64,000 nucleotides of DNA, taken from the sequence record JX128257, one strand, 5' to 3'. Below are positions 8,005 through 54,224 of the stretch, piece by piece. The notes under the pieces were generated by a model that was not told the origin of the DNA, ran no database searches, and saw only the letters and a program-made list of their open reading frames with translations. This DNA is from Escherichia phage ECML-4. Positions within the stretch are counted from its first letter, which is position 1, and each line of letters starts with the position of its first letter. The position numbers were made by a program, and so were the translations under genes.

Positions 8005-8039
8005 GTTCGTTTCCTCTATGGATAAACCTTATGGGATAT

Positions 8040-20080: not shown

Positions 20081-20120
20081 CTAAATACCCCTAGATGACA
20101 TGAATACATTTAGGGGTATT
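20081..20120 (+). promoter_or_regulatory. late-promoter-like CTAAATA box embedded in 10-bp inverted repeat
   Basis: CTAAATACCCCTA ... TAGGGGTATT immediately upstream of ATG 20125. Confidence 0.5.
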
Positions 20121-20124
20121 ACAA

Positions 20125-23100
20125 ATGGCCAACAAACCAACACAGCCTCTTTTCCCTTTGGGTTTAGAAACTTCGGAGTCTTCGAACATAAAAGGCTTCA
20201 ACAACTCCGGCACCATAGAGCATTCCCCTGGTGCAATATTGACGTTCCCTGAAGATACTGATGTTGCGGGTCTCCCATCTTCTGTGCGTTACAATCCTGA
20301 TAGTGATGAATTCGAAGGTTATTACGAAAATGGCGGGTGGTTGTCTTTGGGCGGCGGTGGAATACGCTGGGAAACGCTCCCATACGCTCCCTCCAGCAAT
20401 CTGTTAGAAGGGCGCGGCTATCTCATTAATAACTCCACTGGGACTTCTACGGTGGTTCTTCCTTCCCCTACGCGCGTTGGTGACTCGGTTACAATTTGTG
20501 ATGCCTATGGTAAATTCGCGACGTATCCATTGACCGTATCTCCAGCGGGAAATAACCTGTACGGCTCCACCGAAGATATGACGATATCCACCGATAACGT
20601 GTCGGCGACTTTCACTTGGTCTGGTGCTGAGCAGGGTTGGGTTGTTACATCTGGTGTTGGCCTCGGTCAAGGTCGTGTGTACAGTCGAGAGATTTTCACT
20701 CAAATTTTAGCATCTGATACAAATGAAGTGACTCTCAACATCCCTCCGACAATTGTGGACGTGTACACTGATGGGAAACGCCTTACAGAATCCAAATATT
20801 CTTTAAATGGAAACGTAATCACTTTCGACCCTTCTTTACCTGCTGGCACTGAATTGCAGGTAATAGAATATACTCCGATTCAGTTAGGTACTGGCGGCGG
20901 GGGTTCGGGCGCTTCTGCAATCACCTGGATTTACAATGGCGGATCCGCTATCGGCGGCGAAACCGAAATAACGCTAGACATCGTTGTAGATGATGTTCCG
21001 GCTATTGATATAAACGGGTCTCGTCAGTACAAAAATCTTGGATTCACGTTCGACCCATTGACGAGTAAAATCACTCTGACGCAAGAACTGGAACCAGAAG
21101 ATGAAGTTGTTGTGGTTATAAATGGGACACCAAACATCTATAACCAGATCGATCGTTCTTTACAGGAAGTTGCTCGCGCCTACAATTTTACAAATGCTCA
21201 AGTTATTTTGAGCAACGATTATACTTCTGTGCTGGATAATAAAGTCGTTATTTATGATACGACATCCCAACGTTCTTGGGGGATTCCATCTGGAATTCCA
21301 GCAGGTTCTACAGTGGTTTCCGTCAATGGGGATCAACTGAAATACAAAAATGGATCAACTGAAACCACTGTTACATTGGTGAGCGTACCAGGTAGTGCAG
21401 AGAAGTTGAAGAACGATCTGGCGTCGAACTCTGGCGCGGGTATGTTGAAAACTTCTAGAGGTGATACCGTAGAAGAAGAATTGACTTTTATTAATCAGAA
21501 TATGGTCGTTCAAATTTCAGATTTCGCGAGCCTTAGAACTTTAGTGCCAGCCACAGCGGGCATCCGAGTCAAATTGAAAGGTTATTATTCTGGTTCTGAA
21601 ATTGGTGGCGGAGAATTCATTTCCGTCGCTGGTGATGCTGTTGATGATGCTGGGATGATTGCTCGAGTGTCAAGCAGCTTCTATTGGAAGAGAATTATCG
21701 ACAAACATATTACTCCTGGTATGTATGGCATCAAAGGGAATCTTCCAGAAGATCCGGCAGTGAAACTGAACGCTATGTTTGCGGCTGCGGCTGCGGCTAA
21801 CGCTTATGTCTTACTGAACGATGTCGATACTCTGGTCTGTAAAAGCCCTGTCGTGATCCCAGCACATTCATTAGTGTACGGCAACAAGCGGACCATATTG
21901 AAACGTGATGCATCGTTGTCATATGCTAATGATTTCTTGACAATTATGAATGATTCATATGTCAAGGGGATCTATGTTGATGGTAGCCGTTTAGATTCTC
22001 AGACTCCGCTAGAAGCAGTTTTGGTGCGCATCGCTGGGAATGTGACTATCCATAAGAGCGAGATCCGAAACAATGCTGGCTATGGCGTTGTTGGTAACGC
22101 AGTCCCTGGCATTCGTATCACCAAGAACATTTTTTCCAACTTCGCCAAAGGTTGTGTGGCTATGTTTGGTGACGGAACGGCGACGAGTGATGATCTGCAA
22201 ATTAATGATAACAGATTCTTTAACCTGGGCGCGGGAACCATTTATGTTGGCGGTTACTCAAACTTCCTTGTCGACAAAAACGTCGGAAGAGGCACTTACG
22301 TGGGTTCTCCAGGAAACCGTCTGTATGTTGTGACCAATACCAACGGGACTATCACCCAAAGCGCTGGGCCAGATTTTGGGGCGCTGAAAACGGGTATGTT
22401 CTTTGTATTGCCTGGTGGTTCTGAACATATGATAACGGCAGTCAACAGCCTTACAAGTGTGACAGTAACCCCAGCACCTCCGTCGAATGCAACGGTTCGT
22501 GCAATTGCTGGGACAGGGGATCTTCTGGGCATCCAATCATGCTCCTACGGCACCATCAGCCGTAACAACCTGACCGATTGTGTGACTTACGGAACTGGTG
22601 GAGGCACGATGGAGGGGAGCACTCTGGGGTGCAATTATGTCACATGGGAAGACAACTTCATCCGCAACACAGGTAAGAACGGAATCAACGTCGGGCAATC
22701 AGGCGCTGGGGTCGCCACGTGTTCAATCCTGAGGAACACTCTGATACAGGTTGGTAACGGCGGTCAGGGTGTTGGCCCAGCGTATCTTCTGCCTTGGTTC
22801 GATACGGTAGGTATTGCTCTGTATCAGGGAAACCCAGGTTATATGGCGAATATGGACGTCAGTGATAACAACGTCTCTACATGGTCTGGCGATCTGAATG
22901 ACGGCGCTGCTTGGTTTGGTATGAGCGGTTGTACGGAAGCCACTGTGACTTGTACAGGCAACAAATCTTCTGGTTATTCCGACGGCTATGTTCGTGGAGA
23001 TATATTAGAAGTCACGTTGACAGGTTATGGTACAGGGGCGGCTGCGACTTCATTCGTTAGTGATGGTGAGTCTATACAGATAACTGTTCAAACAGGTACT

Positions 23101-23298
23101 TCACCAACAGCTTCTCCTTATTTTTCAGTGCGGAAGGCGATCCGCACCCGCCATCAACCGATGATAACGGCGCAGATCGTCACCACAACTGGGAACATGT
23201 CTCATTGTTGGGGTATGCAATCTAGTACAGCAGGAAATTGGATGGTGGGTCAGAATACAACTCCTTCAGGGGTCACGACGTATTACGCAAAAGGGTAA
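20125..23298 (+). CDS. tailspike protein with large N-terminal assembly region and beta-helix-like domain (1057 aa)
   Basis: N-terminal block shared with the 926-aa tailspike (DRSLQEVARAYNFTNAQVILSNDYTSVLDNKVVIYDTTSQRSWGIP vs DRSIQEIARSANVKDSEVIVSTDTISLLDGKKVVYDIAAQTSYGLP); Gly/Asn-rich repetitive C-terminal region typical of beta-helix depolymerases. Confidence 0.7.
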   Translation: MANKPTQPLFPLGLETSESSNIKGFNNSGTIEHSPGAILTFPEDTDVAGLPSSVRYNPDSDEFEGYYENGGWLSLGGGGIRWETLPYAPSSNLLEGRGYLINNSTGTSTVVLPSPTRVGDSVTICDAYGKFATYPLTVSPAGNNLYGSTEDMTISTDNVSATFTWSGAEQGWVVTSGVGLGQGRVYSREIFTQILASDTNEVTLNIPPTIVDVYTDGKRLTESKYSLNGNVITFDPSLPAGTELQVIEYTPIQLGTGGGGSGASAITWIYNGGSAIGGETEITLDIVVDDVPAIDINGSRQYKNLGFTFDPLTSKITLTQELEPEDEVVVVINGTPNIYNQIDRSLQEVARAYNFTNAQVILSNDYTSVLDNKVVIYDTTSQRSWGIPSGIPAGSTVVSVNGDQLKYKNGSTETTVTLVSVPGSAEKLKNDLASNSGAGMLKTSRGDTVEEELTFINQNMVVQISDFASLRTLVPATAGIRVKLKGYYSGSEIGGGEFISVAGDAVDDAGMIARVSSSFYWKRIIDKHITPGMYGIKGNLPEDPAVKLNAMFAAAAAANAYVLLNDVDTLVCKSPVVIPAHSLVYGNKRTILKRDASLSYANDFLTIMNDSYVKGIYVDGSRLDSQTPLEAVLVRIAGNVTIHKSEIRNNAGYGVVGNAVPGIRITKNIFSNFAKGCVAMFGDGTATSDDLQINDNRFFNLGAGTIYVGGYSNFLVDKNVGRGTYVGSPGNRLYVVTNTNGTITQSAGPDFGALKTGMFFVLPGGSEHMITAVNSLTSVTVTPAPPSNATVRAIAGTGDLLGIQSCSYGTISRNNLTDCVTYGTGGGTMEGSTLGCNYVTWEDNFIRNTGKNGINVGQSGAGVATCSILRNTLIQVGNGGQGVGPAYLLPWFDTVGIALYQGNPGYMANMDVSDNNVSTWSGDLNDGAAWFGMSGCTEATVTCTGNKSSGYSDGYVRGDILEVTLTGYGTGAAATSFVSDGESIQITVQTGTSPTASPYFSVRKAIRTRHQPMITAQIVTTTGNMSHCWGMQSSTAGNWMVGQNTTPSGVTTYYAKG

Positions 23299-23306
23299 TA
23301 TTGAAT

Positions 23307-23345
23307 GCCTAAATACCCCATATTGGTCATCCTTTATGGGGTATT
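23307..23345 (+). promoter_or_regulatory. late-promoter-like CTAAATA box embedded in 11-bp perfect inverted repeat
   Basis: AATACCCCATA (23312-23322) and TATGGGGTATT (23335-23345), 3 nt before ATG 23349. Confidence 0.55.
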
Positions 23346-23348
23346 ATC

Positions 23349-25232
23349 ATGATTTCTCAATTCAATCAACCACGCGGCTCCACTTCCATAGAAGTTAACA
23401 AACAATCTATCGCTCGAAATTTCGGTGTCAAAGAAGACGAAGTCATTTATTTCACTGCTGGTATTGATCTCAGTGGATTTAAAGTAATTTATGATGAGTC
23501 TACCCAACGGGCTTATTCTCTCCCTTTCGGTATTGTTTCAGGGACAACTGCAATTAGTCTGGATGAAAGAGCTATCCTCACTCATTCCGCTGGCTCTGTT
23601 GACCTTGGGGAATTAGCAGTAAGCCGCGAAGAATATGTGACTTTACCTGGTTCTTTTAATTTCGGCCATACCATTAATGTGAAAAATGAACTTCTTGTTC
23701 ACGATGATAAAAAATATCGATGGGATGGCACATTACCTAAAGTTGTTCCTGTTGGATCAACTCCTACAACAACTGGGGGAATTGGGGTTGGTGCATGGTT
23801 GAGTGTTGGTGATGCATCGCTACGTGGTGAATTATTTTCAGAATACATCTTATACAAAACACCTCAGGCATTTGGTGCTATTGGTGATGGAGTTGCTGAT
23901 GACACTTTATCACTGCAAGATGCAATGGATTACTGTCAGGTTCACAACGAGAAACTTGTTATCCCATCAGGACGCTATCGAATCACCAAGCCACTGCTAT
24001 ATCGCAACCAGGGTTTTTATAACTATGAGATTGAAGGGCAGGGAGGTGCTGCTGTAATCATCATGGATTCTCTGGAAAAAACTGGAATTACTGCTCCTGA
24101 TGCCTTTGGCGATGATTTTAACGTTAACGCAGCGATGGTAGTTCTGAATGACACTAACCAGAGTAAGTATTGCCGCATTAGTGGATTGCGTTTCGAATCA
24201 CCAGTTGGTGCTGAATATGCTATTTATGTTGGTCAGGCAGAAAATACGTATATCCATGACTGCTTCTGGACTGGTTTCACCTTTGGGTGGTATGACCTTG
24301 GATCATGGGTTACACGCGTAGAACGCTGTATTGCCAGGGATATTGTAGATACTGGGTTCTTTAAGAAAAATGGCACCAGTACCTACATAGCTGAGTGTTA
24401 TGCAGACAGGATGATGCGAGGGTATTACCTCGGGGGTGGGTATTCGGCTATCATAAATTGTGCTTGCGATTTAACCACTCGCTGGGGGTTCTATCTATAT
24501 GGTGGTAGGACTGGTTCTGATTTAGCAACATTCTCTATTAAAGGTTGTGGTTCAGAGCAGTCTGGAACTGATTCTGTATTTTATGTTGACGGGCTAGTTG
24601 CGCTGTCTATAGAGGACCACAACGCAGGTAATGACCCAACTGTTCAACCAGCACCTGCTGCGTTGCTTAGCATGGCTTCGAATACATCATATTCACAAGT
24701 GGTGCTGAAAAATATTAGGACAGTAAATGTGGATACATTAATTTTGGATTCTGCTGACCATAATTATTTTGATTTAACAAATGTCACATGCCGCAGCGAG
24801 ATGTCGAAAGAATTTTATCTCGGTACGAATTCAAGAGTTTTAAAAAGGTCATATGATGGTGAAAGATTCATTACTAGCAACGACCAAGTTGGCATTGGCT
24901 TTGCGGAGTCTGATATTGTTGATGGATGGACAGATCTCACTTTGTCTGGACTAAGAAATGGACAATTTATAATTAGGAGGACTGTAAGCATACCCAGAAC
25001 TTCAGGGGATGCTGGGGCGGTAACTATCACGATGCCATTAAATATGGATACGAATTATACCGTAGCTGCCACTCTGGAGGGTGAATTTAGTCAACTGCAA
25101 TCCATTTGCCCTGTGTTCAGTGTTACAGATAAAACATCATCTAGTTTTTCTTTGTGTGCATCGTCTGCAAAGAATAATACAACATGGTCAGCTATAGATG
25201 TTGAGGTGATTATATATGGGCTGAAATCGTAA
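23349..25232 (+). CDS. tailspike protein (627 aa)
   Basis: N-terminal about 150 aa shared with the 744-aa tailspike (MISQFNQPRGSTSIEVNKQSIARNFG vs MNPQFAQPKGSTSKESNKDSIARKFG; YRWDGTLPKVVP vs YRWNGSLPKVVP). Confidence 0.7.
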   Translation: MISQFNQPRGSTSIEVNKQSIARNFGVKEDEVIYFTAGIDLSGFKVIYDESTQRAYSLPFGIVSGTTAISLDERAILTHSAGSVDLGELAVSREEYVTLPGSFNFGHTINVKNELLVHDDKKYRWDGTLPKVVPVGSTPTTTGGIGVGAWLSVGDASLRGELFSEYILYKTPQAFGAIGDGVADDTLSLQDAMDYCQVHNEKLVIPSGRYRITKPLLYRNQGFYNYEIEGQGGAAVIIMDSLEKTGITAPDAFGDDFNVNAAMVVLNDTNQSKYCRISGLRFESPVGAEYAIYVGQAENTYIHDCFWTGFTFGWYDLGSWVTRVERCIARDIVDTGFFKKNGTSTYIAECYADRMMRGYYLGGGYSAIINCACDLTTRWGFYLYGGRTGSDLATFSIKGCGSEQSGTDSVFYVDGLVALSIEDHNAGNDPTVQPAPAALLSMASNTSYSQVVLKNIRTVNVDTLILDSADHNYFDLTNVTCRSEMSKEFYLGTNSRVLKRSYDGERFITSNDQVGIGFAESDIVDGWTDLTLSGLRNGQFIIRRTVSIPRTSGDAGAVTITMPLNMDTNYTVAATLEGEFSQLQSICPVFSVTDKTSSSFSLCASSAKNNTTWSAIDVEVIIYGLKS

Positions 25233-25270
25233 TTATTGTATTAAATAAATAACTTATCTTTTATTAAAAA

Positions 25271-25297
25271 ACCCCGCTTCGGTGGGGTTAGTTTTTA
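25271..25297 (+). terminator. rho-independent terminator
   Basis: ACCCCGC-TTCG-GTGGGGT followed by TAGTTTTT, downstream of the 627-aa tailspike gene. Confidence 0.6.
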
Positions 25298-25399
25298 GAA
25301 GTTGTTGATGGTAATCGGCGATGATTGCTCATTTTGTTTTGGGTAATTCTTCGATCTTCAGTCGTTAAACGCCATCATTGCTGCTTCCCATCCCAGCGC

Positions 25400-25414
25400 C
25401 ACACACACACACAC
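25400..25414. repeat. (CA)7 dinucleotide microsatellite in intergenic region
   Basis: CACACACACACACAC read directly at 25400-25414. Confidence 0.9.
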
Positions 25415-25531
25415 TATGCATCCGGCATTTAAAGATGCGGAAAGGTAATCAATCTGGCCTTCCTCCCAATCGCTAATTGTGTGGTCTTTCCTCTTGCTTC
25501 TGGTGTTTCTTTGTCCGGCGCTGGGAATTAT

Positions 25532-25831
25532 ATGGTAATTTCGGGAAACACGTTGATGGCTAATAACCCATCTGCGCCTGAAAATATAACTTTGTATCAG
25601 GTCACAGGTGCGCAGAGTTGGGTGGCCCATTATGAAACTATCAGATGTGTTCGAAATGATTTCAAATCTGCGCTGTTGGCGATTAATGCAACAGGGACAG
25701 CACAATCTGGTTTGAGTACTACCAATAAATTCTGGTTCGGGGATAACGCGACGATCAATACCACGGTTGTTTGTACTTATCCTGCTGGCAACAAAGCCAA
25801 CACCGATATCACTCAGACAGTTTCAGTTTAA
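25532..25831 (+). CDS. small Ser/Thr/Asn-rich protein (start uncertain)
   Basis: Track ORF 25481..25831 begins at GTG; first in-frame ATG at 25532. Composition resembles fibre-type domains. Confidence 0.3.
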   Translation: MVISGNTLMANNPSAPENITLYQVTGAQSWVAHYETIRCVRNDFKSALLAINATGTAQSGLSTTNKFWFGDNATINTTVVCTYPAGNKANTDITQTVSV

Positions 25832-25842
25832 ATTGAATTGAG

Positions 25843-25881
25843 CCTAAATACCCCATATTGGCAAATCCTTTATGGGGTATT
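25843..25881 (+). promoter_or_regulatory. late-promoter-like CTAAATA box embedded in 11-bp perfect inverted repeat
   Basis: AATACCCCATA (25847-25857) and TATGGGGTATT (25871-25881); same arms as the element at 23312-23345. Confidence 0.55.
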
Positions 25882-25886
25882 TTCAA

Positions 25887-28652
25887 ATGACCAGAAATGT
25901 AGAAGAATTATTCGGCGGCGTAGTCACAGCTCCCCACCAGATTCCTTTCACTTATAAATCAAGTGTCGGTGGAGAAACTTTCTTTTCTCTACCTTTCTAT
26001 CCTGTCACTGGTGTTGTCACAATCAACGGTGGTATGCAAGTTCCGTTAGAGAACTTCGAGATAGACGGGAATACGTTGAATCTCGGGCGCGCATTGTCCA
26101 AAGGCGATGTTGTGTATTGCTTATTCGATAAAATTCTTTCACCAGAAGACACTGCCAAAGGCATCCGCATATACAAATTTCAAGCCGTGGGTGGAGAAAC
26201 CGAATTCACGCCTGACTTTACTTCTTATGGTGTACAGTCTCTTTATATCGGTGGCGAATACAAAACTCCTGATATAGAATATTCATACAACAGTACGACT
26301 GGGAAAGTGTCTTTGCAAACTGCATTGACTGCAGGCGTTTGGGTAGTCGCTGAAATCTCTGTTAAACAACCGAATATCAGTCCGGCGTTTGACCGCAGTA
26401 TTCAAGAAATTGCCCGTTCTGCTAATGTGAAAGACTCTGAAGTCATCGTTAGTACGGACACCATATCTTTGTTGGATGGGAAGAAAGTTGTTTATGACAT
26501 AGCGGCACAAACCAGTTATGGTTTACCAACCATTCCTGATGGTTCTGTCATTTCTACGATCTCAGACGGGAAATTGAATTACAACCCAGGTGATGTGCAG
26601 GTTGATTTGTTGCCTTTAGAAGATTCATTTATTAATGTGATAAACACTCTGGGGCGCAATGATGGTGCCAAGTATATCGGAGAATGCCATTCTGTTGCTG
26701 ATCTCAGGAATACTGAACCCACTATGGATGGACAACGCATTATTCTTAAGCAACACACTGCGGGTACTCTTCTTGGTGGAGGGGTATTCCGTGCGTTAAT
26801 TGATGGTACAGGAAAGACTGATGATAACGGTACTGTGATCAAAACTGTTGGCGGCGCAGCCTGGTTACGTGTTAATGCTGATAGAGTTAACCCATTCATG
26901 TTTGGTGCTTTGGGTGGTTCTAATGATGATACTATTCCAGTACAATCTTGTGTGGACAGTGGTAAGGCCACACAATTAACTGGTATACATTACGTTAGCA
27001 ATATCCAGTTAAAATATAATACGTCGTCTATTTATGGGTCTGGATTACATTACTCCAGGTTGCATCAGTTGCCTTCTGCTACTGGGAATTGTATTACCAT
27101 AAAAGATACATGCTCCCTTATTGTATTAGACTCCTTTGGGGTATATGGCACAGGTGCACAACAAGGCACATCATTTACTGCGGGTACAACAGGTATCTAT
27201 ATAGAAACTCCTTCAGGTCTCTCAGCCGATTATCCGTTCCACACTACCGCAGACCCAAGACGCGACTTGTGTATTTCTAAGGTCCATATAGCAGGTTTTG
27301 ATGAATATGGGTTAAATATTGATAGTGGTAACTTTAGTGTTACTACAGATTCTCTTTTAGTCAACCACATCAATCAGGTGGGCGTCCGTTGTGCTACTAC
27401 TGATTGGACTTGGACAAATATCCAGGTTAATACCTGCGGTAAACAATGTCTGGTTCTTGATGGTTGTGGTAATGGTCGTATTATTGGTGGTAAATTCATT
27501 TGGGCTAACTGGCAACCTTATGGTACAGTAGGACAGTTCCCAGGCATTACTATTAATAATAGCCAGAATATGGTTATTAATGGTATTGAGGTACAAGATT
27601 GTGGCGGGAATGGCATTGAGATTAGCGATTCATATTCAATTTCCATGAACGGATTGAACACCAATCGTAACGGCATCAACGCTAACAACACTTTCTACAA
27701 CATCGTATTTAACAAAAGTGATGCAGTTATCAACGGATTCGTAGGACTCAATTATGCCGCGAATAGTGGTTCAGGTGCTAACTCTAGTGCGGGCAATTTT
27801 CAGTTCCTGTCTAATGATTGCAGCGTCACCATTAATGGTGTGGTTGAGACTGGTTATATGGGCATTAACTTTATTGGTGATAACAATATTATCAACCCCA
27901 CAAATTCCGACCTGAGCATTAACGGATTGGTTAATTATTCCAAGACTGGTTTGCAAACCATGAACGAGACCCCTACATTTGATGGTGTTAGCACTACACC
28001 TGTTTATGTAAGTGTCCCATCTTCTGTAGGGCAAGTAAATGGTCTGAGACTATCACAAGCCAACAAAGATAAATTACTGTACTCAAGAACAGCAGGTCCA
28101 GAAGGTATTACCATGGCTGCTGTTGTAGTACCTACCATATCTGGAGCTGAAGTATTTAACTTCATGGCCATTGGTTCAGGGTTTAGTGATACATCCAACA
28201 GTCTTCATCTTCAATTAGTTATAGACGCTTCCGGAAAACAAACAATTGCTTTGCTATTGGGGGGCGATGGTACAACCCAAATTTTATCTGGGGATTTACC
28301 TAACGACCTTAAACTACAAAGTGGTGTGCCATATCATATAGCTATTGGTGCTAAACCTGGATATTTCTGGTGGAGTATTCTTAATATTCAGACGGGTAAG
28401 AGAATCAGACGGTCATTCCGAGGCGCTTATTTAGCTGTACCATTTAATTCTATATTCGGATTAACTTCTTCATTAACATTCTTCTCGGATAGCAATGCTG
28501 GTGGGGATGCCTGTTCTGGTGTAGGTGCTAAAGTGTATGTTGGTATGTTCTCTTCTGAGAATGATTATGTAGCTTCACGGTACTACAACCTGATTAATCC
28601 TGTAGACCCTAATAAGTTAATTAGTTACCGTATATTGGATTCTTCTATTTAA
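25887..28652 (+). CDS. tailspike protein with beta-helix-like domain (922 aa)
   Basis: Start set at ATG 25887 (MTRNVEEL), downstream of the hairpin; track ORF begins at 25872 inside the hairpin. Shares N-terminal module with the 1057-aa tailspike. Confidence 0.7.
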   Translation: MTRNVEELFGGVVTAPHQIPFTYKSSVGGETFFSLPFYPVTGVVTINGGMQVPLENFEIDGNTLNLGRALSKGDVVYCLFDKILSPEDTAKGIRIYKFQAVGGETEFTPDFTSYGVQSLYIGGEYKTPDIEYSYNSTTGKVSLQTALTAGVWVVAEISVKQPNISPAFDRSIQEIARSANVKDSEVIVSTDTISLLDGKKVVYDIAAQTSYGLPTIPDGSVISTISDGKLNYNPGDVQVDLLPLEDSFINVINTLGRNDGAKYIGECHSVADLRNTEPTMDGQRIILKQHTAGTLLGGGVFRALIDGTGKTDDNGTVIKTVGGAAWLRVNADRVNPFMFGALGGSNDDTIPVQSCVDSGKATQLTGIHYVSNIQLKYNTSSIYGSGLHYSRLHQLPSATGNCITIKDTCSLIVLDSFGVYGTGAQQGTSFTAGTTGIYIETPSGLSADYPFHTTADPRRDLCISKVHIAGFDEYGLNIDSGNFSVTTDSLLVNHINQVGVRCATTDWTWTNIQVNTCGKQCLVLDGCGNGRIIGGKFIWANWQPYGTVGQFPGITINNSQNMVINGIEVQDCGGNGIEISDSYSISMNGLNTNRNGINANNTFYNIVFNKSDAVINGFVGLNYAANSGSGANSSAGNFQFLSNDCSVTINGVVETGYMGINFIGDNNIINPTNSDLSINGLVNYSKTGLQTMNETPTFDGVSTTPVYVSVPSSVGQVNGLRLSQANKDKLLYSRTAGPEGITMAAVVVPTISGAEVFNFMAIGSGFSDTSNSLHLQLVIDASGKQTIALLLGGDGTTQILSGDLPNDLKLQSGVPYHIAIGAKPGYFWWSILNIQTGKRIRRSFRGAYLAVPFNSIFGLTSSLTFFSDSNAGGDACSGVGAKVYVGMFSSENDYVASRYYNLINPVDPNKLISYRILDSSI

Positions 28653-28706
28653 AAATATACCCCTCTTCGGAGGGTATTTACTAGAGAAAAACAGGAGATT
28701 CTTATT

Positions 28707-30941
28707 ATGAATCCGCAATTTGCTCAACCAAAAGGTTCTACTTCAAAAGAATCGAACAAAGACAGTATTGCTCGTAAATTTGGGTGTAAAAAGTCGGAAG
28801 TCGTTTATGCGAAATCAGGACAGTCCTTGTCTGGATATAAGGTTATTTATGACAAGGAAACACAGAGAGCGTATTCCTTGCCTGTAGATATTCCAGCAGG
28901 AACCACGGCTATTAGCCTTAGCGCCAGTGCTCTGCTTGTACACTCTGGGGGTTCTGTAGACCTGGGCGAACTAGCTTCCCAACGCAATGAATATAATGTA
29001 TTACCTGGTTCTTTTACTACTGGTGCAATAGTATCCACAAAGAATGATGTACTTACCCACAATGGTATCCAGTATCGTTGGAATGGTTCATTACCTAAAG
29101 TTGTACCTCAGAACTCTTTACCATCCAGTGATGATAATTGGATTGGCTTGGGTGCTTCTTATCTGAAGGAACAGCTTAACAGTACCAGTGGTGCATCCAT
29201 GGTAGTACTGGCTAATGGCAAAACCATTGAAGAAGAATTTGCCGAAGAAGCTGCATGGCAGAACCAAGAGAATATGGTGAGAACCGTTATTCCTAATGTT
29301 TATCACCATATCCGTGGCGTTCAGCGTCACTCTGGTAAAAACTTAGCATGGTCTGCTCCAGACGTTGCTATTGATAAACTTAACCCTACGGATACCGTCT
29401 TCTACCGTATGCCCCAGATTGTTAAAACTGGTGATGGTACTCTGATGATTTTCTGTAATGAGTTGCATGGTAACAATACAGATATTGGTGCTACTCCAGA
29501 TCAGCAATGTAATATCGTTATGAAATACTCCATTGATAATGGGTGGTCTTGGTCGGCTAAGGTAGTGGTAGCTAACTTTGGGGCTACGTATCAGAACGGT
29601 GAGATTGCTGCTGTGTATAACCCAGTAGATGGTCGGGTATACTGTTACTTTACTTCCTGCAAAGGCCAGTTGGGTTGGGGATACTCACAGCCAGGCAATG
29701 ACCCTAATACATCATCCCAGATATATGTTACCTACTGTGATGCGGAAGCTCCTACTATATGGCGTACACCAGCTAACATTACTGCTACCCTTAAGCCAGC
29801 AACGGCAGATTTTATCTGGACTTCACCAACTAAACCAGTTGTTTTACCGGATGGTAAGATGGCAATGATTGTGTCTACCGTCACTGGTTCACGGGTTGAT
29901 TCTTTCCTTACCATCATGAAGTATGACATTAAGTACAGCATGGACTACGTACTTAGTTCCGAAGAATCTGGTGGGGAAGTCGGACTGAACCTTTTGCCGG
30001 ATGGTCGTATGGTGATGAACTCTCGTGCTTACCACACCACAGACCTTAAAGGGCTTCAGAAATTCTATATCAGTGATCATCAGTTTAAGAACTGGCAGCA
30101 CTTATCTGATTTAGTTACATCGGATAGTAAGGGTGACCTGGTTCCTATTTTTGATGGGGTTAATGGTGTTCTTACTTGGGCGTTTACTTGTGCTAATGGT
30201 GTAGGTGATAATTCTATTGGTCGTACTAACTACCGAGTATGGATTAGTCGTGACCTAGTTACTTGGGGGTTAGCTCCTACTGGGGATATCAACACAAGTG
30301 ATTCTGTTGGGTACATCGCATCAATGCCTGGTGGTGATGATGGTTATGTAATCTCTACATCTGAATCAGGTGGTTTTGGTGGTATTTGGTTTACTCAATG
30401 GAATGCTAAGTATATCCAGAACAGAAACTACAACCGCTATCACAAAGAGTTGCGAGAATTAGAGTCAGTAGATGAAACAGCAATGCTCGCATCCGGCGCT
30501 ATTCCTAACTACTCTTTTTACGTAAACAAAGACTCCAACCTAATTAACTTCAACCGCAACGGTACTCCAGTTAAGATTCAGCAATTGGGGGTTAGTCAGA
30601 ATGCTGTTGATAAGTACACTACAACTCAGACCCTAGCATCTATTCCTGTAGATGGTGTTGATATTGTATTAGTCACTGGTTCCGGTATTACTCTTACCCT
30701 TAGTGGGTTTAGCGGTGGATATATGGGCCAGCGTGTGACAGTTATCTCTGATTCATCTGGTGGTGGGGTAGTGCTTAAACGTGCTGATACAACATTGCCT
30801 ACTGTAACGGACAGATTCCACTTTAATGTGGCAGGAGCCTTTACTGCTTTGAGGGTAGACTATGCAACTAAGATGATGGTTACTTTAGTTAAGACTCCAT
30901 CTGGTTGGTTCACGGAAAGTATTGCTAACGTAACAATCTAA
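28707..30941 (+). CDS. tailspike protein with sialidase-like (BNR/Asp-box) domain (744 aa)
   Basis: Shared N-terminal module with the 627-aa tailspike; YRMP motif resembling the sialidase (F/Y)RIP motif, followed by Asp-box SIDNGWSW (SxDxGxTW pattern). Confidence 0.65.
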   Translation: MNPQFAQPKGSTSKESNKDSIARKFGCKKSEVVYAKSGQSLSGYKVIYDKETQRAYSLPVDIPAGTTAISLSASALLVHSGGSVDLGELASQRNEYNVLPGSFTTGAIVSTKNDVLTHNGIQYRWNGSLPKVVPQNSLPSSDDNWIGLGASYLKEQLNSTSGASMVVLANGKTIEEEFAEEAAWQNQENMVRTVIPNVYHHIRGVQRHSGKNLAWSAPDVAIDKLNPTDTVFYRMPQIVKTGDGTLMIFCNELHGNNTDIGATPDQQCNIVMKYSIDNGWSWSAKVVVANFGATYQNGEIAAVYNPVDGRVYCYFTSCKGQLGWGYSQPGNDPNTSSQIYVTYCDAEAPTIWRTPANITATLKPATADFIWTSPTKPVVLPDGKMAMIVSTVTGSRVDSFLTIMKYDIKYSMDYVLSSEESGGEVGLNLLPDGRMVMNSRAYHTTDLKGLQKFYISDHQFKNWQHLSDLVTSDSKGDLVPIFDGVNGVLTWAFTCANGVGDNSIGRTNYRVWISRDLVTWGLAPTGDINTSDSVGYIASMPGGDDGYVISTSESGGFGGIWFTQWNAKYIQNRNYNRYHKELRELESVDETAMLASGAIPNYSFYVNKDSNLINFNRNGTPVKIQQLGVSQNAVDKYTTTQTLASIPVDGVDIVLVTGSGITLTLSGFSGGYMGQRVTVISDSSGGGVVLKRADTTLPTVTDRFHFNVAGAFTALRVDYATKMMVTLVKTPSGWFTESIANVTI

Positions 30942-30947
30942 AATACA

Positions 30948-30974
30948 AGCCCCCAATAAGGGGGCTTTCTTTTG
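30948..30974 (+). terminator. rho-independent terminator
   Basis: AGCCCCC-AATAA-GGGGGCT followed by TTCTTTTG. Confidence 0.65.
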
Positions 30975-31105: not shown

Positions 31106-34100
31106 ATGCAATCTACAAATTTAAACCGTCGCCCGTATTGGGATGACTGGAATCCTGGGAAACGTTTTTCACGGATTCTTTTTCGTCCGATGCCTATCAA
31201 GGTTCAGACTCGCGAACTGAACCAGATGCAGACTATTCTTCAGGATCAAATTGAAAAACTGGGCAACCATCTGTTCAAAGATGGTTCTATGGTTATCCCT
31301 GGCGGTCTGACGATCACCAATGCCGCAGTCTCTTTGAAATTCACTTTGGCGGGTGGTACTGAATTCACCGATCTGGAAGGTATTTCTGAACTCTACGTTT
31401 TGGGGAAAGACAATAACGCCAAAGCGCGTGTGTTGTCTCTTGAACGTGATCTGTCTGCTCCTGATACGATGTTGGCCATCCTTGAGATGACTGAAGCGGG
31501 TAATGCTGACGGATTCCATGTTAACGATAATCTGTATTTCCAGACTTACGACGTGAATGATAATTTCATTCGTATTGGTTATGGGATCGCGGCTGCTGTA
31601 ACTGGTTCTATCGTTGCTCGTATGACGAAAGGCGTTTACTTCATTCGTGGGATGTTCCTTGATGTTGATGACGCGACTCTCATCGTCGATAAAACTTCAA
31701 ACACTTCTTCCCATCGCGTCGGGTTTAAAGTCACCGAAACCATCGTGACTGAATCTGAAGACGAATCCCTTTATTCAAACGCTCAGGGAACGATTAACTC
31801 CAAAGCCCCAGGCGCTCATCGTCTTCGAATAGATCTGGTCTTATCTCGATTTGATTATGATGCTGTGGTTGAAGACTTTGTTGAACTGGCCAAAGTTCGT
31901 GATGGTAAAATCCAGTCTATGGTGACTCAGTCCACCTATAATATTCTGGAAGACACGTTGGCTCAACGGACGTATGAAACCAACGGCGATTACAACGTTT
32001 CAACGCATCAGATCGACATCCGCGAACACCTGAAAGTCAATAACAATGGTGGAGTATTCAATGCTGCTGATGGCGGCGACGAAAGTAAATTCGTGTCTGT
32101 AATGAAACCAGGTATTTCCTATGTTCGCGGTCGTCGTATCGAAAACGTCGGGGAAGAGTTGGTGATCGTTGACAAGGCACGGGATACCGATGTCCTGAAT
32201 AACACGCCTGTCGCAGTTGCTACAGGGAATTATCTGGTCACCAAGAACTCCAAAGGTGTTCCAGTAATATCTCGCACTGTGCGATACAAGTTATTGAACG
32301 CATCCGGCGCTACTCAAGCCACGGCGTTGTGTATATCCGCTGAACGCAATTCAACTGAATTCCGCCTGTACATGCGTGATTTAGTTGTGACTGGGGACGC
32401 GTCCACTATCACCAAAGTGTCTTATGAAGAAAGTGGGATCACCATGTTTTCTGCTGAACTGGAATCCAACCAGTTTAACCAGAGTTCTATGGTAGACCTG
32501 ATCTTCTCTCTTCCGGTCTTCGGTGTTAAAACATTAGCGCCAACAGGTTCCGTGGATATCAACTACACAGTCCTCAGAACTTATAAGGTGACGCTAGACA
32601 GCAGCGGTTCTGGTTCTATTTCAGCCCCGCTGGGATATAGTTTTTCCCCAGAATTTTCGTTGTACTCTGCAGCGAAATCAGATGGTTCGGAAGCGCAGTT
32701 CGATATCTCTGGCTCTTTGTCTTTGACTGGTTCTCCGGTCGGTTCGGCGCTGCAGATTTCTCTGGGTAGTGGTAATGCTAACCAGTCAATCAATTTGCTG
32801 GCGCTGATGATTCGTACCACGGCCACAATCAAAACGAAGACCATCACTGAAACAACTGAAACAGTGACGTTCACATCACAGACCAGCCGTCCTTTGGCGA
32901 ATCACGATGGTTGGAAATTGGTATCGGTCAAAAACGATACTGGCGCAGACGTGACCTCTAGCTTCGTTCTAGATGGTGGACAGCGTGATGCAGGGTATTA
33001 CAAGTCTAACTTGTTATCCAGCGCTGGAGCAATCTCAGGGACGTATACAGTGGTGTATCAATACTTCGCCCACAGTTCCGGTGATTTCTTCTCTGCTGAT
33101 TCGTATACTTCGATGGATTATAAAGATATCCCGAATTATACATCTTCTACATCAGGCGCGGTGTACGGCCTGGCAGATAGTTTAGATTTCCGTCCGAAAA
33201 TCACCAACGGAACTTCTGACACAGATATGGTTCGTCCAAACACTGCAGTTATTCTGGACACAGAATATTATCTGCCGCGTATCGACGCGATTTATCTGGC
33301 AGACAACGGTGTGTTTGGTGTGGCTCGAGGCATCAGTTCTAATAATCTGGCTTCTCCAGCAATCCCAGCGAACGCCATGCGTTTGTATGAATTGTTGATC
33401 CCGCCGTATACACCGAATATTGATGATATCCAAATTCGAACTATTGATAATCGTCGTTATACAATGCGCGATATCGGTAAACTGGAAACCCGTATTTCCA
33501 ATGTTGAATACTATACCTCTCTGTCACAGCTGGAATCTTCAGCGATGACACAGCAAGTGTTTGACCCCATCACGGGTAATCCTCGTTTCAAAAATGGTAT
33601 TGCAGCTGATCCGTTCAAAGACTTCCGGTTGATTGATGACTTGTCTGAAGATTGGATGGGTTCTATCGATACCGAAAACGGACGTCTACGCCCGTTTGTA
33701 CAACAGAACGTTGTTGACATGACTCCGGTTGGCTGGAACAAAGTGATGGATGGGATGGTGGTTTGTAATTACACACCTGAAATCTCAGTGAACCAAGAAT
33801 ATGCGACGACGACGATCAACGTTAACCCGTATGCAGTATTCAATTGGGAAGGTTTCTTGAAGATTAACCCGACCACAGACTACTGGTTCGAAAACTATTA
33901 TGTTGCCCCGCGTATTATTAATGAAACGATCAACACCCGTGGTACTGTACAAGAAGGTTCAGTGTACGGAACATGGCGGACTGTTTCTGTTTCTGATCGT
34001 GTTTGGGAGCCGCATGGTGCTGGTGGTGTGTGGTGGGGATATCGTTACCGCACGACTGTTTCTGCCCGTGATGTCACCACATATACATACACGGACAAAA

Positions 34101-35944
34101 CAACCACGACCATGACTGGTGAACAGATTGTGGAGACGCAAGTTATCCCATACATGCGCGAGATCGATATTTCTTTCGACGCATCTGGACTGCGACCTTT
34201 CACTCGTATGTATGCGTTCTTCTCTGGTCGTGACGTCAATCTGTATTGCAAACCGAATGGTGGTAATTTCGGTGACCCAATCACCACTGATGCCAATGGT
34301 GCTGTTAAAGGTGTATTCCGCGTTCCACAGAACGATACAATCAAGTTCAACACAGGCGACAACGTGTTCCGCTTAACGGATAGCCCTGTTGACAGTAAAT
34401 CTGCGGATGATACACTGACCAATGCAGAAATTGTTCATAAATCTTTCGGTAAGAAACAAGGTATTCAAAAGACCTTTGTCAACACTCGTGTCCTGGGTTA
34501 CACTGCCAGTACTCGCACCGAAACCAGCACTTCTGAAGTTGTGGTCGACCAATGGCGTGATCCGATTGCCCAATCGTTTATGGTAGCGACTAAGAATGGC
34601 GGCGAGTATATCGAAGGCGTGGAAGTATTCTTCTCTACCAAGTCACGTGATGTTCCGATCACTCTGGAAATTCGCGAGATGGAGAATGGCTTACCTTCTC
34701 ATACAGTCATTACTCGTAAAACTTTGAACCCGTCTGAAGTGACGATCTCTACAGACTCTTCCGGCGGTACGAAGTTCACCTTTGATTATCCGGTGTATCT
34801 GCAAGCATCGACTGAGTTTGCTATCGTTTTGTTGGCGAATACCCAGGATTACAACGCGTATATCGCGGAAATGGGCAAGAAAAACCTTCTGTCCAACGAA
34901 TATATCGCCAAACAACCGTATACAGGGGTGTTCTTCACTTCTTCAAACGGTTCTACATGGTCTCCAAACCAAATGGCTGATATGAAATTCCGCATATATC
35001 GTTGTAACTTCGCTGCGGGACAGAACGTTGTAACATTTGATTCGAAGCTCGGGCCAAAACAACGTCCGTTGGGATTGAATACTCTGAACTGCGTGAGTGG
35101 GTCTTCTGTTGTGACTGTGTTTGCACCTGGTCATGGTTTGGTTGCTGGGAACAATGTTACTCTTTCTGAATTGACAGGTGGTTGTGGCTTTACTCCTGAA
35201 CAACTTAACAAAACGTTTACTGTGACAGATGCGAGCTATACTTCATTCAAGATTGATGTTGGCGCAGCAGCAGACAGCAACGGTCAGATTGGTGGCGACA
35301 ACGCATCTTTCTTGGGAAATTATCTGGTTGATATGTTCTATGCCAGCGTTACCAATTCGGCTCTGGAAGGTTCAATATTGAAACTGGAATATCGTTACCG
35401 CGATGCCACTTCAAACTCCATGTCGGATTGGGCTGAATTTGAAACTGATACTGATGTTGCTCTGCCGACTGAAGGTATCTATCGCCAGGTTGGTGACTTC
35501 CAGATTCGTGCTACTATGACTCGTAGTGAAAACAACGTGTACACAGCACCGATGATTGATGGTGATGACCTAAGTGTAATCTTCAACTCTTATGGCGTAG
35601 ATCCTTTTGAAGACGTTTTCAAATATGTCACAAAGGACATTGGTTTCGATAACCCATGTTCGACTGTGAAACTGTTCTTCGGGGCGATGCTGCCTTCTCA
35701 ATCCTCCATGAAGGTGCAGGTAAAACTGCTCCGAGCAGGGCAAGAGATGGATAGCGTGGATTGGGAAGACGTTACTCCAACTTCGCCTCTGGTTAACGAC
35801 GGTTCTACATTCTTTGAATATGAGTATGATAAGACTGTGGCAAGCAACAATCCGTTCGTTGGACTGAAAGTCAGAGCACTTGTAAGGGGGAACCGAGTTG
35901 CTCCTCCTTCATTCAAAGACTTCCGTCTTATTGCTCTGGCATAA
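31106..35944 (+). CDS. giant virion structural protein (1612 aa), function unknown
   Basis: Single uninterrupted ORF within the late structural block, preceded by a CTAAATATC late-promoter-like box at about 31063. Confidence 0.6.
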   Translation: MQSTNLNRRPYWDDWNPGKRFSRILFRPMPIKVQTRELNQMQTILQDQIEKLGNHLFKDGSMVIPGGLTITNAAVSLKFTLAGGTEFTDLEGISELYVLGKDNNAKARVLSLERDLSAPDTMLAILEMTEAGNADGFHVNDNLYFQTYDVNDNFIRIGYGIAAAVTGSIVARMTKGVYFIRGMFLDVDDATLIVDKTSNTSSHRVGFKVTETIVTESEDESLYSNAQGTINSKAPGAHRLRIDLVLSRFDYDAVVEDFVELAKVRDGKIQSMVTQSTYNILEDTLAQRTYETNGDYNVSTHQIDIREHLKVNNNGGVFNAADGGDESKFVSVMKPGISYVRGRRIENVGEELVIVDKARDTDVLNNTPVAVATGNYLVTKNSKGVPVISRTVRYKLLNASGATQATALCISAERNSTEFRLYMRDLVVTGDASTITKVSYEESGITMFSAELESNQFNQSSMVDLIFSLPVFGVKTLAPTGSVDINYTVLRTYKVTLDSSGSGSISAPLGYSFSPEFSLYSAAKSDGSEAQFDISGSLSLTGSPVGSALQISLGSGNANQSINLLALMIRTTATIKTKTITETTETVTFTSQTSRPLANHDGWKLVSVKNDTGADVTSSFVLDGGQRDAGYYKSNLLSSAGAISGTYTVVYQYFAHSSGDFFSADSYTSMDYKDIPNYTSSTSGAVYGLADSLDFRPKITNGTSDTDMVRPNTAVILDTEYYLPRIDAIYLADNGVFGVARGISSNNLASPAIPANAMRLYELLIPPYTPNIDDIQIRTIDNRRYTMRDIGKLETRISNVEYYTSLSQLESSAMTQQVFDPITGNPRFKNGIAADPFKDFRLIDDLSEDWMGSIDTENGRLRPFVQQNVVDMTPVGWNKVMDGMVVCNYTPEISVNQEYATTTINVNPYAVFNWEGFLKINPTTDYWFENYYVAPRIINETINTRGTVQEGSVYGTWRTVSVSDRVWEPHGAGGVWWGYRYRTTVSARDVTTYTYTDKTTTTMTGEQIVETQVIPYMREIDISFDASGLRPFTRMYAFFSGRDVNLYCKPNGGNFGDPITTDANGAVKGVFRVPQNDTIKFNTGDNVFRLTDSPVDSKSADDTLTNAEIVHKSFGKKQGIQKTFVNTRVLGYTASTRTETSTSEVVVDQWRDPIAQSFMVATKNGGEYIEGVEVFFSTKSRDVPITLEIREMENGLPSHTVITRKTLNPSEVTISTDSSGGTKFTFDYPVYLQASTEFAIVLLANTQDYNAYIAEMGKKNLLSNEYIAKQPYTGVFFTSSNGSTWSPNQMADMKFRIYRCNFAAGQNVVTFDSKLGPKQRPLGLNTLNCVSGSSVVTVFAPGHGLVAGNNVTLSELTGGCGFTPEQLNKTFTVTDASYTSFKIDVGAAADSNGQIGGDNASFLGNYLVDMFYASVTNSALEGSILKLEYRYRDATSNSMSDWAEFETDTDVALPTEGIYRQVGDFQIRATMTRSENNVYTAPMIDGDDLSVIFNSYGVDPFEDVFKYVTKDIGFDNPCSTVKLFFGAMLPSQSSMKVQVKLLRAGQEMDSVDWEDVTPTSPLVNDGSTFFEYEYDKTVASNNPFVGLKVRALVRGNRVAPPSFKDFRLIALA

Positions 35945-54197: not shown

Positions 54198-54224
54198 TTA
54201 AATACCCCCAAAATTGGGGGTATT
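54198..54224 (+). promoter_or_regulatory. late-promoter-like TTAAATA box embedded in 12-bp perfect inverted repeat
   Basis: AAATACCCCCAA-AA-TTGGGGGTATTT, 3 nt before ATG 54228. Confidence 0.5.

Follow-up and report, generated by a model that had tools for sequence, protein, structure and literature searches.

The tailspike protein (TSP) module of Escherichia phage ECML-4 lies at positions 20,125 to 30,941 of the 64,000-nucleotide stretch of sequence record JX128257 that was analyzed, which is referred to here as the window. The module consists of four consecutive large genes on the + strand. These encode TSP4 (20125-23298, 1057 amino acids (aa)), TSP3 (23349-25232, 627 aa), TSP2 (25887-28652, 921 aa) and TSP1 (28707-30941, 744 aa), and the four products are exact matches to the ECML-4 proteins AFO10349, AFO10350, AFO10352 and AFO10353, respectively. 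An earlier note, made from the sequence alone, had listed the same four genes; its positions and its lengths of 1057, 627 and 744 aa are correct, but its 922 aa for the remaining protein is off by one. If the TSP2 open reading frame (ORF) is read from an upstream in-frame ATG, it extends from 25872 to 28652 and encodes 926 aa. The 921-aa start gives the crystallised TSP2 of phage CBA120 residue for residue (query 6-926 equals chain 1-921), and the upstream ATG at 25872 falls within the 3' arm of a conserved hairpin.

ECML-4 is a Kuttervirus (family Ackermannviridae) with a genome of 157,308 bp. The region is matched by 231 phage records, mostly of Salmonella and Escherichia phages, each of which covers at most 84% of it, so ECML-4 itself is absent from that collection, and the records examined among these matches (AR2819, KEP4 and Vi01) are Kutterviruses. 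Synteny with AR2819 is complete, from the baseplate-wedge genes through a 396-aa tail protein gene and the four spike genes to a gene for a 1612-aa VriC-like DUF4815 protein; synteny is also seen with KEP4 for the four-gene cluster. Thus, ECML-4 has the arrangement that marks the Kutterviruses, a consecutive cluster of up to four tailspike genes between baseplate-wedge genes and a VriC-like gene in a ViI-like genome of about 157 kb. The module, its modular N-termini and the host-range logic are already published (PMC8432352, PMC8825819 and PMC11721090), ECML-4 itself is already in the literature as a phage used on E. coli O157:H7 (as cited in PMC8432352), and its four tailspikes have already been classified in two comparative studies. 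Two features described below, a recombination scar at TSP3 (its junctions, donor debris and a relic of the old gene) and, apart from an annotation label, the sialidase fold of TSP1, appear not to have been described in the literature examined. They are refinements and not a new kind of system.

The four spikes were compared in pairs by BLASTP, with 50 sets of shuffled sequences as the control. TSP3 and TSP1 are 55% identical over residues 1-164 and 1-159, respectively (E 9e-52), which agrees with the N-terminal domain of about 150 aa that the earlier note had assigned to the 627- and 744-aa proteins. Both proteins open directly with a TD1-TD2 head, and PF18668 (Tail_spike_N) is found in each. 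TSP4 and TSP2 are 30% identical over residues 275-543 and 100-348, respectively (E 4e-29), and the block that they have in common consists of XD3, TD1 and the neck/D3' region. The large N-terminal region once ascribed to these two proteins is therefore a real similarity, but in TSP4 it lies behind about 170 additional residues (the anchor, XD1 and XD2) and so is not at the very N-terminus, and the identity is only 30%. One domain, TD1, is common to all four spikes (TSP4 342-437, TSP3 7-72, TSP2 161-252 and TSP1 7-120). Through it, all six of the six pairs are significantly similar at 35-44 bits, as compared to a best score of 30 bits and a mean of 23 bits for the shuffled sequences, a relationship that the first reading had missed. 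As that reading had predicted, the C-terminal parts differ: in BLASTP of all pairs they have no significant similarity to each other. Pfam matches among the spike proteins include Tail_spike_N, Beta_helix and pectate-lyase-like families.

The TSP3 gene is made up of two parts of different origin. The native Kuttervirus part (23349-23731, + strand) encodes aa 1-127, that is, TD1 and most of TD2 up to a YRWDG motif, and the imported part (23732-25232, + strand) encodes aa 128-627, that is, the end of TD2, the neck, the beta-helix and the C-terminal domain. At the protein level, aa 1-164 match CBA120 TSP3 (6NW9, E 2e-96). At the DNA level, the gene equals AR2819 TSP3 up to ...CGATGGGATGG and is siphovirus-like from there on, which places the left junction in the YRWDG codons. 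No Kuttervirus counterpart of 23732-25232 was found in the phage collection searched; the nearest DNA in that collection is 81% identical and belongs to Guernseyvirinae/Kagunavirus tailspikes, with the match ending exactly at their stop codon. A tailspike gene on a siphovirus-like contig of 45.9 kb (L009) is closer, with 89% identity over 23715-25232.

The foreign DNA does not end with the gene. A donor-derived non-coding block follows at 25233-25488, which contains a terminator, a 3' fragment of a convergent siphovirus gene and a (CA)n run. DNA from 25267 to 25495 is 91% identical to DNA just 3' of the tailspike gene of siphovirus ECO95 1-6-1. The terminator is an intrinsic one (25270-25296, + strand, -18 kcal/mol, z -3.9). 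The gene fragment (about 25358-25495, - strand, about 45 codons) has 44 of 57 identities to the C-terminus of a 145-aa ORF in ECO95 1-6-1, where this gene converges on the tailspike gene. The (CA)n run, at about 25400-25416, is inside the fragment. The suggestion that the 145-aa gene encodes a VRR-NUC nuclease was dropped, as there is no Pfam match. Immediately after the block comes a relic of a displaced ViI-type TSP3 (25489-25831, + strand), which consists of the last 113 codons and the stop codon. At the nucleotide level, the relic is 99% identical to the 3' ends of Vi01_172c (the ViI TSP3 gene) and of KEP4, and it runs to the stop codon of the ViI gene. Of its 113 aa, 112 are those of the C-terminus of ViI TSP3, and the match of its ORF to PHROG 7992 covers the C-terminal end of that family. 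On the right, the junction is marked by a microhomology of 7 nt, TCCTCTT (25489-25495), that is common to the donor and recipient sequences.

Judged by these comparisons, about 1.76 kb of Guernseyvirinae-like siphovirus DNA has replaced most of a ViI-type TSP3 gene, and the transfer presumably went from a siphovirus to a Kuttervirus. The incoming block consisted of a tailspike gene from the YRWDG motif to its stop codon together with the donor terminator and the tail of the convergent gene. The left crossover was homologous, in the conserved YRWDG codons, and the right one was an illegitimate microhomology join inside the old TSP3. The relic remains because the right junction is such a join inside the old gene and not one at a conserved downstream motif. 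The scar also accounts for what looks like an empty spacer. The distance from the TSP3 stop codon to the TSP2 start is 654 nt, while intervals of about 50 nt separate the other spike genes, and the gap is this long because donor debris and the dead tail of the old TSP3 fill it. By their content, the two small ORFs in the spacer are not genes: the one at 25481-25831 (+ strand) is the displaced TSP3 tail, and the one at 25358-25705 (- strand) runs through the siphovirus gene fragment. One of the two is probably the annotated ECML-4 protein AFO10351, and the scar explains the small ORF called there as well. What is left at the locus is a readable record of how a myovirus gained a siphovirus receptor-binding domain, by a homologous crossover at YRWDG and a microhomology join.

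The scar is not restricted to ECML-4. It recurs in collinear form, with 96% identity, in two metagenomic assemblies of Kutterviruses (ENA ERZ27313666 and Logan SRR10451678) that are independent of each other and in which TSP4, TSP2 and TSP1 differ. Compared with the metagenomic Kuttervirus copies, the ratio of non-synonymous to synonymous substitution rates (dN/dS) of TSP3 is 0.12-0.13, and the gene is therefore under purifying selection. The differences from one metagenomic copy (L010, 8001-9884) are unevenly distributed: 88 of 97 are in 24449-25149, none are in 23549-24349, and the flanks and the scar are 99-100% identical. This clustering in the last third of the receptor-binding domain points to a later internal patch recombination. 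In the donor block (25233-25488), the sole length difference between ECML-4 and the two metagenomic Kutterviruses is 8 nt, which suggests microsatellite slippage in dead DNA. An AlphaFold model of TSP3, built from 35 homologues, has a mean per-residue confidence (pLDDT) of 84, and its best matches are the tailspike beta-helix depolymerases of CBA120 (TSP3, TSP1 and TSP4), Sf6, Dettilon and Acinetobacter phages. Hence, TSP3 is predicted to be a beta-helix depolymerase.

The TSP3-type domain is found on five anchors, namely Kuttervirus TSP3, the TSP1 slot of another Ackermannviridae lineage, Kagunavirus, Gamaleyavirus and P22-like E. coli prophages, the last of which was confirmed, and it is present in Citrobacter as well. 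P22-like prophages with this domain occur in more than 50 assemblies of E. coli and Citrobacter. Two ENA metagenome contigs of the other Ackermannviridae lineage (L012/L013, 8001-10000), with the N-terminus MNEMFSQGGKGSTG..., have the same domain and the same terminator. They are 90% identical to window positions 23852-25297, and the domain is in the last (TSP1) slot, with a gap of 470 nt before the VriC-like gene. In the chromosome of E. coli SWYHX138.261ft (L014, 8991-9983), an IS911-truncated copy resides in a decayed prophage, next to gtrABC-like O-antigen glucosylation genes, intS and tRNA-Arg (argW); an intact form of this tailspike-gtr arrangement is present in contig L009. These occurrences do not lead to a receptor. 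Among complete E. coli genomes, a copy is present only in two horse isolates, where it is truncated by IS911, and they provide no serotype information. Among the cultured phages with the domain, no receptor can be assigned: the Kagunavirus hosts are untyped, and Gamaleyavirus PGN829.1 (host "serotype O8") has two spikes, so O8 cannot be assigned to the TSP3-type domain.

TSP4 is the largest of the four spikes. It has an anchor domain (AD, aa 1-75), a GGGG linker (76-79), XD1 (80-178), XD2 (189-249), XD3 (265-335), TD1 (about 344-421) and then the beta-helix part. Residues 1-339 match the anchor and the gp10-like XD1-3 domains of CBA120 TSP4-N (7REJ, E 1.4e-205; 7RFO, about 1e-205). The limits of AD, XD1, XD2 and XD3 were set by the inter-domain linkers described in PMC8825819, which are retained in ECML-4: GGGG at 76-79, GLGQGRVYSR at 179-188 and TPIQLG..GG in the Gly-rich stretch 250-265. 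The receptor-binding part has a Pfam Beta_helix match at 631-719 (29.6 bits, as compared to a curated cut-off of 25.9 bits). In 20 Kutterviruses, Vi01 (98.9%) among them, the DNA of this part is 97-99% identical, and the allele is of the ViI/Maynard type; the label TSP4-12 has been given to it (PMC10892097).

TSP2 consists of XD2-XD3 (aa 1-168), TD1, the neck, D3' and a beta-helix glycosidase, and it matches CBA120 TSP2 over its full length (6W4Q, 2046 bits; 5W6P, 1512 bits). The catalytic residues D506, E568, D571 and Y623, the roles of which in CBA120 TSP2 are described in PMC7506556, are all present at the CBA120 positions, and ECML-4 is listed under the O157-specific subtype TSP2-1 (PMC8432352). 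By its near-identity to the CBA120 protein, for which the activity has been demonstrated, TSP2 is a glycosidase that cleaves the E. coli O157 O-antigen.

TSP1 is the spike with the unusual fold. It has a TD1-TD2 head (aa 1-150) that matches the TSP1/TSP3 heads of the CBA120 6NW9/4OJ5 type, a helical neck, a putative six-bladed propeller (about 205-570) like that of glycoside hydrolase family 33 (GH33) and a C-terminal beta domain (about 583-744). A structural model of TSP1 was made from 12 sequences; its mean pLDDT is 68, and the propeller is mostly in the range of 70-90. The best Foldseek matches of the model are exclusively GH33 exo-sialidases and KDNases (E about 1e-16). Against 1EUS and 4J9T, the template-modelling (TM) scores are 0.77-0.80, normalised to the target, and the root-mean-square deviation is 3-4 A over about 370-390 columns. 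The sequence also matches GH33 sialidases, with a best E of 1.5e-9 by phmmer and 1.4e-18 with a family profile. The YRMP motif at 233-236 aligns with FRIP of 4FJ6, and the Asp-box SIDNGWSW at 275-282 aligns with STDKGQTW. Alignments of hidden Markov models (HMMs) to solved sialidases end near residue 460, and the candidate catalytic residues were recognized by conservation within the TSP1 family: down to 33% identity, R234 and D259 are present in at least 90% of the members, and E424, R440, R506, Y536 and E553 are invariant. Related phages carry the annotation "exo-alpha-sialidase" for this protein.

The receptor-binding part of TSP1 is protein-identical in 13 Kutterviruses and 99.3% identical in a fourteenth. 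Domains of this type are also found on Kagunavirus-type, other siphovirus-type and T7-type anchors, as well as in Enterobacter and S. diarizonae genomes. The type has been labeled TSP1-20, and its Sajous1 representative, gp139, was detected in virions by mass spectrometry, where it is abundant (PMC10892097). The supplement of PMC8432352 contains nothing on ECML-4 subtype labels. An NCBIfam scan gave no match for TSP2, TSP3 or TSP4; for TSP1, its neuraminidase model scored 38 bits.

What TSP1 does on its receptor can be said only tentatively. One possibility, to which we give a less than even chance, is that TSP1 (TSP1-20/X40) is an active sialidase-like spike of the GH33 type that binds and degrades an O-antigen or capsule of enterobacteria in which a nonulosonic acid (Neu5Ac, Kdn, legionaminic acid or pseudaminic acid) is present. 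Candidate antigens would include those of the Salmonella O48/O61 type or the E. coli O104/O145 type. Another possibility, to which we give a similar and also less than even chance, is that the domain has a sialidase fold and serves as a lectin-like binder or as a hydrolase for some other sugar. This would fit with an identity of only 16-19% to characterised GH33 enzymes, with the NCBIfam score just mentioned (the cut-off of that model is 900 bits), with HMM alignments that span the first half of the propeller only and with the fact that none of the hosts reported for these phages has a sialic-acid O-antigen. A mere binder or a hydrolase of another specificity would be harder to reconcile with the retention of the (Y/F)R(I/M)P motif, the Asp-box and D259, E424, R440, R506, Y536 and E553 in the family down to 33% identity, and with best structural matches that are all exo-sialidases or KDNases. 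In the literature searched, nothing relevant was found on GH33-type tailspikes that act on O-antigens. If TSP1 does cleave a nonulosonic-acid glycan, it would be an O-antigen depolymerase of a class distinct from the beta-helix spikes and the GH58 endosialidases. That class would also be exchangeable, because the same domain is on several anchor types and in bacterial genomes.

All four C-terminal parts are thus enzyme-like, as the earlier note had expected: TSP2 matches a solved glycosidase, TSP3 has a modeled beta-helix, TSP4 has the Pfam Beta_helix match and TSP1 has a modeled sialidase propeller, which makes one of the four not a beta-helix. The note had also proposed a branched tailspike complex as in ViI-like phages, and this proposal is borne out in so far as the genome is that of a Kuttervirus and its N-terminal modules are those published as assembly domains for CBA120. 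We are highly confident that the host-recognition module of ECML-4 consists of four spikes that form a CBA120-type branched complex and that its TSP3 allele was imported from a siphovirus. The complete set of domains needed for such a complex can be demonstrated in the ECML-4 sequences. The assembly order and the domain roles come from ultracentrifugation and electron microscopy of CBA120 (PMC8825819 and PMC11721090). By analogy, all four spikes would be trimers. The N-terminal anchor domain of TSP4 would attach this spike to the baseplate, TSP2 would dock on TSP4 through the XD2 domains, TSP1 would dock by its TD head on XD3 of TSP4, and TSP3 would dock on XD3 of TSP2 once the TSP4:TSP2 complex had formed. 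Each spike would then degrade its own glycan by means of its distinct C-terminal domain; for TSP1, TSP3 and TSP4, this activity is a prediction. With a distinct polysaccharide-binding and -cleaving domain on each spike, the virion could therefore use several surface glycans. As to the several polysaccharide specificities that had been proposed, four differing enzyme-like domains are present, and only one specificity, O157 for TSP2, can be assigned.

Several points weigh against this interpretation. The exact donor of the TSP3 block was not found, and L009, which matches best in the coding part, and ECO95 1-6-1, which does so downstream of it, are different genomes. The receptor-binding fold of TSP4 is read from a single Pfam match, and the TSP1 model is of moderate quality only. 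Complex formation and activity are both carried over from CBA120; this includes the docking of TSP1, the TD1 of which is only 55% identical to that of TSP3. One could argue instead that the module is only partly functional, with the chimeric TSP3 or the non-beta-helix TSP1 as an inactive passenger and fewer than four specificities. It is true that the recombination behind TSP3 was crude and left debris, that ECML-4 is documented on O157 hosts only and that the literature searched assigns no receptor to TSP1 (TSP1-20/X40), TSP3 (X2) or TSP4 (TSP4-12). Against a passenger role, however, all four spike ORFs are intact, TSP3 has a low dN/dS when compared to a diverged copy, and members of its receptor-binding family are widespread, on five different kinds of phage anchor. 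Likewise, the receptor-binding part of TSP1 is conserved at the protein level in 14 Kutterviruses, the sialidase motifs are invariant across its family, and the same subtype is abundant in Sajous1 virions. We consider a partly functional module improbable.

A transfer in the opposite direction, from a Kuttervirus to a siphovirus, or a TSP3-TSP2 spacer that is an artefact of assembly, is less probable still and would surprise us. Both could draw on the missing donor genome, and receptor-binding domains do move in all directions among these phage groups. However, in the Kuttervirus, non-coding siphovirus DNA and a siphovirus gene fragment stand ahead of the 3' end of the TSP3 that it once had; this order is therefore explained only by insertion into the Kuttervirus. 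As for an artefact, the same arrangement is present in three independent assemblies (ECML-4 and the two metagenomic ones). Accordingly, we retain import of the TSP3 allele from a siphovirus into a functional four-spike module. ECML-4 is a food-safety phage, and the literature assigns no receptor to three of its spikes, one of them a spike with a sialidase fold that is shared by at least 14 Kutterviruses; this bears on the prediction of its host range.

The spike genes are also marked by hairpins. A motif of the form CTAAATACCCC-N9-14-GGGGTATT ends 4-7 nt ahead of the TSP4, TSP3 and TSP2 start codons. The hairpins (CTAAATACCCC...GGGGTATT) are at 20081-20124 before TSP4 (-19.1 kcal/mol, z -6.8), at 23309-23348 before TSP3 (-19.6 kcal/mol, z -5.1) and at 25844-25886 before TSP2 (-18.8 kcal/mol), all on the + strand. 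The motif occurs seven times in the window as compared to 0.76 expected, and further copies are at 8033 and 8512 (- strand) and at 54198 and 57376. For the Ackermannviridae, CTAAATAcCcc has been listed as a regulatory motif (PMC7283392), and the CBA120 genome paper stated that the late promoter of ViI-like phages was unidentified as of 2011. The CTAAATACCCC hairpin is probably the terminator-like "motif three" of Pas 2023 (PMC10408124), and it may serve as a promoter, as a terminator or in translation. A scan for sigma-70 promoters gave 17 sites as compared to 27 in shuffled sequence, which is fewer than expected by chance. A terminator-like hairpin (30947-30967, + strand, -15.5 kcal/mol, z -3.1) closes the module before the VriC-like gene at 31106. 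The latter gene (31106-35944), directly 3' of the spikes, encodes the DUF4815 protein, and "virulence-associated VriC" is its annotation in relatives. Elsewhere in the window, a cluster of five transfer RNA genes is located on the - strand at 11600-12863 (Ile-GAT, Ser-GCT, Tyr-GTA, Asn-GTT and Met-CAT).

The closest known system is the branched complex of CBA120 (Plattner 2019; Chao 2022; Greenfield 2019/2020). ECML-4 resembles it in the gene order (TSP4-TSP3-TSP2-TSP1, with the baseplate genes on one side and the VriC-like gene on the other), in the near-identical N-terminal 339 aa of TSP4, head of TSP3 (aa 1-164) and whole of TSP2, and in the catalytic residues of TSP2. However, three of the four receptor-binding domains differ: TSP4 is of the ViI/Maynard type and not of the O78 type, TSP3 has an imported siphovirus-type beta-helix and not one of the O77 type, and TSP1 has a sialidase-like propeller where CBA120 has an O21 beta-helix. 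Salmonella phage ViI (Vi01) is nearly identical to ECML-4 in the receptor-binding DNA of TSP4 and in the sequence that survives as the TSP3 relic. However, ViI has an intact 846-aa TSP3, a TSP2 specific for the Vi capsule and another TSP1.

Exchange of receptor-binding domains between phages of different morphology has precedents. In the case of Det7 TSP3 and the P22 tailspike, a myovirus has a receptor-binding module of the podoviral kind (Walter 2008, as cited in PMC8432352). As in ECML-4, one receptor-binding domain is found on the anchors of different phage morphotypes, but the ECML-4 TSP3 belongs to another receptor-binding family, and in its case both junctions can still be seen, as can remnants of donor and recipient DNA. 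Pas et al. (2023; PMC10408124) placed the third receptor-binding protein (RBP3) of ECML-4 in subtype X2, which it has in common with RBP2 of Gamaleyavirus PGN829.1, and reported both that this protein is exchanged across genera and that conserved recombination motifs surround the receptor-binding domains of lytic coliphages; the main text of that paper does not mention ECML-4. The left junction of the ECML-4 TSP3 is in such a conserved stretch, while the right junction is not at the conserved downstream motif but at the illegitimate 7-nt microhomology.

Two further comparisons concern single domains. The XD2 and XD3 jellyroll domains resemble the adaptors T4 gp10 and G7C gp66/gp63.1 in being docking platforms for additional trimeric fibres or spikes, and the relatedness that has been reported is at the level of the fold only. 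TSP1 resembles the K1F and K1E endosialidases in having a sialidase-type beta-propeller as the predicted receptor-destroying domain of a spike. In contrast to these endosialidases, its best matches are GH33 exo-sialidases and KDNases, with no endosialidase among the 50 structural matches listed, and no K1 host is reported.

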